Origin: Escherichia phage vB_EcoP-CHD5UKE1
Length of the DNA: 64,000 nt
Strand: one strand, 5' to 3'
Sequence record: NC_070989.1
Part shown: one piece after another, positions 1 to 3,571 of the stretch
How positions within the stretch are numbered: position 1 is the first letter of the stretch
Layout: every line of letters starts with the position of its first letter
Program-made: the position numbers and the translations under genes
The notes under the pieces: generated by a model
The model's input: the letters and a program-made list of their open reading frames with translations, nothing else
The model's database searches: none
Told to the model about the DNA's origin: nothing

Positions 1-65
1 AGCCTTTCTCTCACTCTCTAAAGGGGTACTAAATAAACGGGTAGCTAATGAATAGGATGGTATAC

Positions 66-99
66 ACGGGGAAATAATTACGGGGAGTAGGCACGGGGA
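66..99 (+). repeat. Three direct copies of ACGGGGA (66-72, 80-86, 93-99) at 13-14 bp spacing in the leader region upstream of the packaging genes
   Basis: Read directly from sequence; non-coding region about 1.4 kb upstream of the terminase genes. Confidence 0.5.
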
Positions 100-550
100 A
101 AGGTGGAATGTTGAAAGGGAAGGTAAAGGCATTGCCATATGAGCTTTTTTAAATGAGGACTCCCCCTTTTTAGGAAACGCGCGGCGAGAGGCTAGCCCCA
201 TTCGGTCAAATCAGAATTTTAAACTCTTATATATAAGGTTGAAAGAGAACTTATGTGGAAAATTAAGTTAATCATTAAGCAATTCAAATGTGATCATGAG
301 TACTATCGGATACGCAAAGCTTACGGGGATGAAAGAGTTCACACCCTTTATAAGTCCACTTGGAGATGTAGTAAATGTGGTAAGCTTAAACACAGCACAT
401 GGATGGATAGGCCTTAACGTGACATGGCCTTTATGGGGGTGCCTTTATGACATACCCTTTACTTCAGCGTACACGGGTTGTTGGTATGGGGTGGCCTTTA
501 CGGGTTAGATATGCCTAGCCCTTTATACTCTTATTCAGAGGAGAAGAATT

Positions 551-2029: not shown

Positions 2030-3571
2030 ATGTCATTAGATAAACAAATTTATGAAGCTCTAACTGGTAACAACCTTAGTGTAGAGGAAAAGAAAGCACT
2101 ATTGAATATGTTGAAAGAGCGTGACCAATGGAGGAAGTATAATAAGATTTTGTCTTTCAAGGCGTATGACTTCCAAAAGAAATTTTATGCAGCAGGATTG
2201 AAGCATCGCTTTAGATTCTTGTGTGCAGCGAACCGTGTTGGTAAATCTTACAGCGAGGCATACGAGTTTGCTTGTCATGTCACAGGTCGCTACCCAACTT
2301 GGTGGACAGGATATAAATTTAAAAGACCTATCTTAGCATGGGCAGTTGGTATTACAGGGGATTCCACAAGGAAAGTATTGCAAAAGGAATTGTTTGGTAC
2401 ACCTATCGGAAAGGATACAAATTTATTGGGGACAGGTGTCATTCCTCGTGATGCTATCGTCATTGACACGATAGAACGAGATGGTAACAAACTTCAAATC
2501 GTACAAATCAAACATCAAAACGAAAGAGGAGAGTTTGACGGTTTAAGTACATTAGAATTCCGTTCAACCCAACAGGGTGAACACACATTGATGGGTGCAA
2601 CAGTTGACTACATTTGGTTAGACGAAGAAGATCCATACGAGTCTATGGCTATATTCGCACAGTGCGTCACACGTACACTCACAACTAAAGGTCTAGTTAC
2701 AATTACAGCTACACCAGAGAACGGTTTAACTGAACTGGTAGATAAATTCATGAAAGGTGAAGGGGATGAGAGCACAGGTTCTCTATATTTCCAGAATGCT
2801 TCTTGGTGGGATGCTCATGTAGACTTAGGTGGACATATCACTGACCAAGATATAAAAGATATGACTGAAGGTATTCCAGCGTGGCAGTTAGAGATGCGTT
2901 CGAAAGGTATGCCATTGTTAGGAAGTGGTTTGATTTATGATGTATCGGATGACACAATTAAATGTGAACCATTCGAAATTCCTGATACGTGGAAACGCGT
3001 CTGTGCAATTGATATTGGTATTGATCACCCAACTGCTGCTGTTTGGACAGCTTACGATGCAAACACGGATACTATCTATGTTTACGACTCATATAAAGAA
3101 GGTGGCTTTACTCCAGTGTATCATGCTCCAGCTATTAATGGTCGTGGTCAGTGGATTCCTGTCATCCTGCCGCACGATGCGGACAATATTGAGAAAGGTA
3201 GTGGATCATCTGTTGCTCAATTCTATAAGAATGCAGGAGTTAACGTACAGAGTGAGACCTTCTACAACAAAATTGGAATGGATGGTAAAAAGAACTTCTT
3301 TGTAGAACCGGGAATCACAGATATCCGAGAAAGAATGATGAGTGGACGCTTTAAAATCTTTAACACAGCCGCTAATGCTAAGCTATTCGAAGAGAAAGCT
3401 AGATATCACCGTAAGGTTGGTAAGATTATTAAAGAACATGATGACTTAATGGATGCAATGCGCTATTCAGCGTGCTCTGTTACACATCGTGGTCGCTCTA
3501 AGCATGACGTTAGCTACGGAAGTGCTTCTCTGTATGAGGCAAACGTAAGCAGATGGAATCAGAGCTACTAA
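2030..3571 (+). CDS. terL: terminase large subunit (513 aa)
   Basis: Walker A-like CAANRVGKS, Walker B-like IWLDEED, C-terminal nuclease-like region; located just upstream of portal. Confidence 0.88.
   Translation: MSLDKQIYEALTGNNLSVEEKKALLNMLKERDQWRKYNKILSFKAYDFQKKFYAAGLKHRFRFLCAANRVGKSYSEAYEFACHVTGRYPTWWTGYKFKRPILAWAVGITGDSTRKVLQKELFGTPIGKDTNLLGTGVIPRDAIVIDTIERDGNKLQIVQIKHQNERGEFDGLSTLEFRSTQQGEHTLMGATVDYIWLDEEDPYESMAIFAQCVTRTLTTKGLVTITATPENGLTELVDKFMKGEGDESTGSLYFQNASWWDAHVDLGGHITDQDIKDMTEGIPAWQLEMRSKGMPLLGSGLIYDVSDDTIKCEPFEIPDTWKRVCAIDIGIDHPTAAVWTAYDANTDTIYVYDSYKEGGFTPVYHAPAINGRGQWIPVILPHDADNIEKGSGSSVAQFYKNAGVNVQSETFYNKIGMDGKKNFFVEPGITDIRERMMSGRFKIFNTAANAKLFEEKARYHRKVGKIIKEHDDLMDAMRYSACSVTHRGRSKHDVSYGSASLYEANVSRWNQSY

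Follow-up and report, generated by a model that had tools for sequence, protein, structure and literature searches.

A conserved ladder of G-run motifs inside the direct terminal repeat of a phiEco32-like Escherichia phage, a possible docking array for DNA packaging

Several phages carry short repeated words close to the sites at which their DNA is cut for packaging, and we describe here a comparable arrangement at the left end of Escherichia phage vB_EcoP-CHD5UKE1 (NC_070989.1), where the heptamer ACGGGGA occurs three times between positions 66 and 99 of the stretch of DNA that was analysed (64,000 nucleotides, referred to below as the window). In lambda (the R-elements of cosB) and in SPP1 (the boxes of pacL and pacR), an oligomeric small terminase reads several short sub-sites, all in one orientation and close to the place where the DNA is cut. 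The R elements of lambda are 16 bp in length, lie tens of bp apart and work with an IHF bend, and lambda and SPP1 use cohesive-end or headful packaging. The window phage is unlike both in having exact direct terminal repeats (DTRs), and there is no sequence similarity to the lambda or SPP1 sites. Like T7, it is a podovirus that packages from concatemers with short exact DTRs. In the T7 genome (NC_001604), ACCTAAAG is found at 16, 40 and 59 within the terminal repeat (160 bp), and CCTAAAG recurs every 13 bp in a ladder that extends over approximately 175-340. The window likewise has heptamers of one strand inside a short DTR, with a period of 13-14 bp, and a second ladder (sCCTTTA, period 14) some hundreds of bases to the right of it. 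The T7 array to the right of the terminal repeat was reportedly named SRL by Dunn and Studier in 1983. However, the motifs are unrelated (ACGGGGA and sCCTTTA versus CCTAAAG) and the likeness is architectural only; the two ladders of the window use different motifs whereas T7 uses one, and T7 RNA polymerase is involved in end formation in T7, while phiEco32-like phages encode no RNA polymerase.

In T7, PacB at the concatemer junction is the sequence that the small terminase recognises, and PacC is where the large terminase makes its cut. Like the PacB-PacC pair of T7 and T3, the locus described here belongs to a DTR phage, is part of its concatemer junction and combines a candidate array with two boundary cut sites that share their context; unlike that pair, which was defined by plasmid transduction and deletion experiments, the window array is known from sequence only. 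The large terminase (TerL) of the window is nearest to the P22 and PaP3-type enzymes and is 38-39% identical to TerL of PaP3/LUZ24-type phages. This group includes phage tf, which resembles the window phage both in its related large terminase and in having short direct repeats inside its DTR (186 bp). The small terminase (TerS) matches PaP3 and NV1 (6w7t and 7joq) in its core, but the N-terminal DNA-binding part remained unaligned, and the window family has a conserved basic KGNKFGRPKGSR segment instead. PaP3 TerS is reported to form a ring, to bind DNA sequence-specifically in vitro and perhaps to read repetitive sub-sites; unlike the window phage, PaP3 itself was treated as a cos phage, and its site spans about 20 bp and is not a ladder. 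Overall, the ladder described below is a sequence-unrelated case of a known genome-end architecture, situated within a known DTR; it adds detail to a known feature and does not represent a new type of system.

The three ACGGGGA copies are exact, lie on the + strand at 66-72, 80-86 and 93-99, and are separated start to start by 14 and 13 nt, so that the even spacing attributed to them in a preliminary description of this DNA is nearly, but not strictly, kept. The outer two copies share the longer word CACGGGGAAA, while the middle copy stands in the context TTACGGGGAGT. The two spacers, AATAATT and GTAGGC, show no relation in sequence, which indicates that the triplet is not a recent tandem duplication. 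No open reading frame (ORF) of at least 40 aa overlaps 1-252, and the region is therefore non-coding, as had been stated. The word ACGGGGA occurs four times in the 64 kb (3.07 expected), an unremarkable count, but all four copies are located within the first 330 nt. Moreover, nowhere else in the window are three copies of any non-trivial 7-mer packed into 40 nt. When the whole window was shuffled with its dinucleotide counts preserved, 19 of 300 shuffles contained one or more clusters of this kind (p ~0.06). The shorter word A[CT]GGG was found four times in the DTR (0.25 expected) and nine times on the + strand of the first 520 nt (0.68 expected), compared to one copy on the - strand there, although these enrichment tests are post hoc. 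The statistic obtained from the sequence alone is thus marginal, and the evidence that the feature is real comes from location and conservation. The fourth ACGGGGA copy, at 323-329, lies within an ORF (253-417).

With respect to location, the 64 kb of the window form the left part of the genome of a phiEco32-like coliphage (genus Kuravirus, subfamily Gordonclarkvirinae). Its first 3 kb are matched by 98 phage records, most of them at 95-99% identity, and base 1 of the window is in register with base 1 of the records of phiEco32, SU10, YF01, Paul and WFI101126 (window 1-260 compared to phiEco32 positions 1-260, 96.9% identity). In the records of phiEco32 and YF01, the first 193 nt are the same as the last 193 nt with 0 mismatches (193/193), and the end of the SU10 record bears the DTR as well. 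Positions 1-193 are annotated as the DTR in the YF01 and Paul records. The 193-bp DTR of phiEco32 was reportedly determined by restriction mapping, primer walking and sub-cloning, that of SU10 by read drop-off (SU10 paper) and that of YF01 by nanopore reads covering the whole genome (YF01 paper). The right genome end of the window phage falls outside the 64-kb window, and presence at two ends is seen in the relatives. By homology to phiEco32 and by the YF01 and Paul annotation, window 1-193 can be assigned as the left copy of the 193-bp DTR, that is, as concatemer-junction sequence. The ACGGGGA triplet sits in the middle of this repeat, at distances of 65 nt to the left cut and 94 nt to the right one, and hence would be present at both ends of virion DNA and once per concatemer junction. 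The suggestion that the repeats belong to a genome-end element is borne out in this respect: in close relatives the termini lie 65 nt to the left of the first copy and not at some other place in the genome. The DTR itself was already known.

To place the triplet in the context of related phages, 18 DTRs from four lineages (Kuravirus, LAMP-like, Nieuwekanaalvirus and Suseptimavirus) were aligned. The triplet was found to belong to a same-strand ladder of five to six G-run motifs with the consensus A[C/T]GGG[G/T]A, which spans 23-99 of the window; G-runs stand at 23, 39, (55), 68, 82 and 95, with a period of approximately 14.4 bp. The first rung (20-28, + strand, AAAGGGGTA) is degenerate; its G-run at 23 is present in all Kuravirus and LAMP-like DTRs and absent from those of Nieuwekanaalvirus and Suseptimavirus. 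The next rung, ACGGGTA at 37-43 on the + strand, has A[C]GGG at 37 in 18 of 18 DTRs and thus in all four lineages. In all 12 Kuravirus DTRs the ladder consists of ACGGGTA at 37 and ACGGGGA at 66, 80 and 93, and the slot at 55 is filled in Paul, SGF2 and N1203, which are Kuravirus, and in LAMP. LAMP and Bas94 carry ACGGGGC, ACGGGAT and ACGGGAA with spacings of 16 and 12, Nieuwekanaalvirus (EP335 and KBNP1711) carries six copies, and Suseptimavirus (SU7, ECBP2 and NC-B), in which the DTR-homologous region is longer by 56-57 nt, carries ATGGGTA at 66, 94 and 109. Followed through the lineages, the first ACGGGGA copy of the window keeps its position everywhere and reads ATGGGTA in Suseptimavirus; the second is ACGGGAT, moved by 2 nt, in the LAMP-like and Nieuwekanaalvirus DTRs and is absent in Suseptimavirus; and the third corresponds to a rung at 93-97 in all lineages. 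In essence, the rungs at 37, 66 and approximately 94 are retained in every lineage.

Conservation of the motifs was then compared to that of the surrounding repeat. Among 11 Kuravirus DTRs, none of the 28 columns of the four heptamers varies, compared to 70 of 165 columns elsewhere (Fisher p ~1e-6), and the difference persists against the local background at 30-110, where 22 of 53 columns vary versus 0 of 28 (p ~1e-5). When Kuravirus, LAMP-like and Nieuwekanaalvirus DTRs were taken together, 14 of 20 columns of the ACGGG core were invariant versus 19 of 53 other columns at 30-110 (p = 0.009), a value obtained although two rungs shift by 1-2 nt; since the compared DTRs share ancestry, all of these p-values are optimistic. 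These data indicate that the heptamers are under strong purifying selection, while motif, number and spacing turn over by lineage. Fixed words, free spacers and lineage-specific changes would be the pattern of short recognition sites and unlike that of a duplication relic. In the literature on phiEco32-like phages, in which the original phiEco32 reports were covered through citing papers, no mention of the ACGGGGA repeats or of the ladder was found.

The reading that we tentatively favor, at somewhat less than even confidence, is that the ladder serves as a multi-subsite recognition array for the small terminase or for the machinery that processes concatemer junctions. By this account, the ladder would be a docking array with multiple sub-sites on concatemer-junction DNA; the oligomeric small terminase (encoded at 1487-1960), or a partner in junction processing, would bind several rungs at once, and this binding would mark the junction and position the large terminase for two sequence-related cuts (GCT|AGCC, where the bar marks the cut) at the DTR boundaries. 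The ladder would then be the functional counterpart of T7 PacB. The sequences show the position in the DTR, the ladder layout, the bias to one strand and the selection on the heptamers; the identity of the reading protein and the step at which the ladder acts are what we infer. The proposal that the repeats are a terminase recognition site, made in the preliminary description, is accordingly plausible by position, architecture and analogy, whereas binding and a packaging role stay on the inferred side. Also in favor of an array, all four ACGGGGA copies and 9 of the 84 + strand A[CT]GGG copies of the window sit in the first 520 nt in one orientation. The reading also draws on a candidate small-terminase gene nearby with remote homology to PaP3-type proteins, on PacB of T7 as a precedent, on the short direct repeats in the DTR of tf and on a further conserved CTATGGGG to the left of the junction cut.

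The boundaries of the repeat bear on the same reading. The left boundary (1-8, + strand, AGCCTTTC) is preceded by ...CAGTGCT in concatemers and permuted records, giving the cut context GCT|AGCC, and 14 junctions read (G/A/C)CT|(A/G)GCC. The right boundary (190-197, + strand) is GGCT|AGCC, with the cut at 193/194, continues as ...GGCT|AGCCCC and includes the palindrome GCTAGC; it reads sCT|AG(C/G)C in 17 of 18 phages, the exception being 172-1 with CCC|AGCC. Both boundaries of the window (AGCCTTTC on the left and GGCT|AGCC on the right), as well as the length of approximately 193 bp, agree with the comparison of 18 phages. Both therefore share the context GCT|AGCC, with the palindrome GCTAGC cut at its centre, which fits one enzyme that is positioned from one docking site. 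The shared context is also consistent with a single nuclease carrying out both cuts and with the ends of SU10, which were reported to be blunt.

Several points weigh against a docking array. The ~14 bp period is not a multiple of the helical repeat, which is awkward in that it would place the rungs on different faces of the duplex. To our knowledge, the analogous short repeats of T7 are also without proven function. The literature examined reports no binding, footprint or packaging result for the ladder motif. The small terminase is 90-98% identical across lineages although their motifs differ. One suggestive correlation is seen in TerS of SU7, whose lineage has ATGGGTA: the substitutions N33E, N36T, K38R and Q40T form a cluster that is absent in the other five sequences compared. 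They come from one phage for one lineage and are not independent evidence. Lastly, the block at 143-172 (+ strand, GCTTTTTTAAATGAGGACTCCCCCTTTTTA) is the most conserved part of the DTR, more so than the ladder; within it, TGAGGACTCCCCC followed by a T-run is invariant in 18 of 18 DTRs. This block would fit the highly conserved small terminase better than the ladder does, and it is the stronger candidate for the site that this protein reads; it may be the real recognition site, or an additional one. A conserved region at about 130-170 was pointed out in the YF01 paper, and the SU10 paper describes an internal repeat, CCCTTTTTTA-N10-CCCTTTTTTA, whose T-run varies in length between reads; this T-run repeat of SU10 flanks the 143-172 block.

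The SU10 paper pointed out that T7 forms its ends with the help of an RNA polymerase which phiEco32-like phages do not have, leaving the mechanism of the latter unknown. The comparison presented here yields three mutable targets, namely the ladder, the 143-172 block and the GCT|AGCC context at both boundaries, and these can be used to test how phiEco32-like phages recognise and cut their DNA; at least one sister genus, Suseptimavirus, has another ladder motif (ATGGGTA). Such targets could also help to define minimal packaging signals for engineered transducing particles, in a group that is often isolated as candidates for therapy.

Among the alternatives to a docking array, we regard as unlikely, yet deserving of serious consideration, that the ladder is an element of replication, recombination or end biology with a reader other than terminase (end protection, priming or DTR duplication), or that it acts as single-stranded DNA (ssDNA). 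In the single-strand variant, the G-rich strand would be kept unstructured for annealing of 3' overhangs into concatemers or would form a non-canonical G-quadruplex. The composition of the repeat agrees with this variant: the top strand at 20-140 is 72% purine (99.8th percentile of the window), and the G4Hunter maximum of the 64-kb window lies in the ladder (1.72). When folded as ssDNA, the two strands of the DTR fold worse than shuffles (z = +2.1 and +1.9), with 199 of 200 and 198 of 200 shuffles, respectively, being at least as good. The ~14 bp period disregards the duplex helical repeat, as expected of single-strand recognition, and replication of the T7 type requires a single-stranded DTR at some stage. 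However, there is no canonical G-quadruplex, since four G-runs with loops of at most 12 nt are not present, and LAMP-like and Suseptimavirus DTRs, which retain the ladder, have G4Hunter scores of only 1.08-1.24. Purine richness also fails to explain why seven bases are invariant beside purine-rich spacers that vary, and no candidate reader protein was found for a role in end biology. We consider it a long shot that the rungs themselves are read as ssDNA, or as a long-looped or intermolecular G-quadruplex, on an exposed DTR strand; the exposed strand could be the 3' overhang left unreplicated at the right end of the genome, or the strand displaced while the terminal repeat is duplicated. If true, reading of the rungs in this form would link packaging to the formation of concatemers or the duplication of the repeat without an RNA polymerase of the T7 type. 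The poor folding of the DTR strands may reflect selection for an unstructured annealing overhang or may be a by-product of the G/A-rich ladder.

A role in transcription is less likely still, and we hold it to be improbable. Here, the DTR would hold a promoter for gp36, the phage sigma factor, and the repeats would lie at approximately +6 to +39 of the transcript or would be sites for a regulator of that promoter; of all readings, this one comes nearest to the 'leader' of the preliminary description. A weak candidate promoter is found at 46-54 on the + strand (TAATGAATA, one mismatch from tAATGTATA), with a start near 61. This element has AATGAA and keeps the four contacted bases A-14, A-13, T-12 and G-11, and a -35-like GGTACTAAAT at 24-33 resembles the GGTAGTAGAT of two middle promoters with a 1-nt offset. 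In six relatives (Paul, LAMP, SGF2, N1203, O18-011 and Bas94) the exact AATGTA is present, and the ladder rung at 37-43 sits between the two promoter elements. Against this, 9-mers with one mismatch occur at chance level in the window (17 found, 18 expected), and a position weight matrix built from the seven clear promoters puts the DTR site only at rank 193 among 127,900 positions. The gp36 element is missing in Suseptimavirus DTRs that retain the ladder, and the literature examined lists three middle and three late gp36 promoters, none of them in the DTR. RNA of 58-180 is not unusual in structure (z = -0.04) and has no Rfam match, and the packaging genes have a separate promoter motif behind a terminator-like hairpin. 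The DTR promoter, if active, would fire rightward from each terminal repeat and, in concatemers, across the junction.

It is very improbable, in our estimate, that the copies are a relic of duplication or slippage that hitch-hikes in the DTR without sequence-specific function. The marginal p of ~0.06 obtained from the sequence alone would allow such an origin, and the relatives are close (mostly 84-97% identity over the region), so that shared ancestry weakens the conservation tests. However, 70 DTR columns vary in the 11 phages and not one of the 28 heptamer columns does, the spacers between the copies are unrelated, and diverged lineages rebuild the ladder with other spacing, other copy number and even another motif, which is not drift-like. 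Further candidates were rejected: a leader of the structured-RNA or riboswitch type (the fold of 58-180 is matched by shuffles, and 1-1500 has no Rfam match at E <=1), GGGGAGT/ACTCCCC pairing (no covariation, with the TCCCCC block invariant while the Suseptimavirus motif is ATGGGTA), a sigma-70 promoter or intrinsic terminator inside the DTR (none by consensus scan) and a canonical G-quadruplex (none in the window at loops of <=12 nt; a single candidate, 68-119, at loops of <=20 nt).

The preliminary description had also located the triplet in the leader of the packaging genes, adjacent to the terminase genes, and neither statement holds. The terminase genes lie about 1.4 kb from the triplet, with the small terminase starting at 1487 and the large terminase at 2030. 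Three ORFs (253-417, 551-805 and 798-1430) stand between the DTR and the terminase genes, followed by a terminator-like hairpin (1436-1451) and a separate late-promoter motif, TAATGTAGA (1467-1475), on the + strand; these last two elements (1436-1475) divide the left-end region from the packaging genes. In the SU10 paper, a late promoter for the phage sigma factor was placed in the same intergenic gap. The ORF at 253-417 encodes a 54-aa protein with C-x-H ... C-x2-C, which is zinc-ribbon-like and belongs to PHROG 7696, of unknown function.

The large terminase subunit (2030-3571, + strand, 513 aa) matches Pfam Terminase_6N (E 2.9e-15) and Terminase_6C (E 4.4e-14) and is 99% identical to phiEco32 TerL. 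Directly upstream of it, 1487-1960 on the + strand encodes the small subunit (157 aa), the candidate reader of the ladder, which is labelled 'putative terminase small subunit' in YF01. This protein received no name from Pfam, NCBIfam or PHROG, and a PDB search with the single sequence was also without a match. A profile of 30 homologues, in contrast, matched the solved small terminases 7joq (E 0.0029) and PaP3 6w7t (E 0.055) in the oligomerisation core, and this match supports the label of putative small terminase for the 157-aa protein. Its AlphaFold model is only moderately confident, with a pLDDT (predicted local distance difference test) of 68, and Foldseek gave no significant match, with PaP3 TerS at ranks 2, 4 and 7. 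Ahead of the core, the family has a conserved basic segment, F-x-KGNKFGRPKGSR-x-KLTQ.

The published lengths of the terminal repeat are in conflict for some relatives: it is annotated as 172 bp in LAMP and 250 bp in NC-B and is given as 53 bp in the SU7 paper. The first 260 nt of SU7 align to the 250-bp repeat of NC-B along its whole length, which suggests that the terminal repeat of SU7 was under-called. In addition, the record of WFI101126 (MK373770.1, 76708-77307) ends in the reverse complement of the DTR, giving inverted and not direct ends; this is probably an assembly or finishing artefact. An IMG/VR scan for the conserved flank (GGTCAAAT...AATTTTRAAC) added just a few contigs of the Kuravirus type, four of which are copies of phiEco32, NJ01, KBNP1711 and ECBP2. 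A scan for ACGGGGA-N(4-10)-ACGGGGA-N(4-10)-ACGGGGA was uninformative and matched over 120 unrelated contigs, for the most part with a period of exactly 12 nt; among the IMG/VR matches listed, the 34-nt geometry of the triplet was seen in phiEco32 only.

Other conserved elements were found on both sides of the repeat. In the unique DNA of the right end, about 66 nt to the left of the left DTR boundary, CTATGGGG is conserved in nearly all compared phages, and SU10 carries CTATGGAG in its place. To the right of the DTR, a near-invariant block at 198-236 on the + strand (TTCGGTCAAATCAGAATTTTAAACTCTTATATATAAG, with TCGGTCAAATCAGAATTTTAAAC...TATATATAAG) is shared by all four lineages. An IHF-like site within it (209-221, AATCAGAATTTTA), read by eye and unscored, has one mismatch from the IHF consensus WATCAANNNNTTR. 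The second ladder (426-526, + strand) has sCCTTTA at 428, 442, 456, 495 and 520, with a period of 14 or multiples, and is situated in the non-coding gap that precedes the ORF at 551. These are 5 of the 25 + strand CCTTTA copies in the 64 kb, and four A[CT]GGG copies (433, 473, 486 and 500) interleave with them. The CCTTTA ladder was found in the same gap in 6 of 6 relatives checked, representing four lineages (YF01, Paul, phiEco32, LAMP, SU7 and KBNP1711).

More distant phages of the elongated-head C3 morphotype were also compared; the record of Aeromonas phage APT65 is without a DTR, and LAh_6 was uninformative. In the 850 nt upstream of the APT65 terminase genes, there are nine GCATGR motifs together with an CCCCTTTTTAG block, and the CCCCTTTCCCCTTTTTAG block of this phage recalls the Kuravirus CTCCCCCTTTTTAG.

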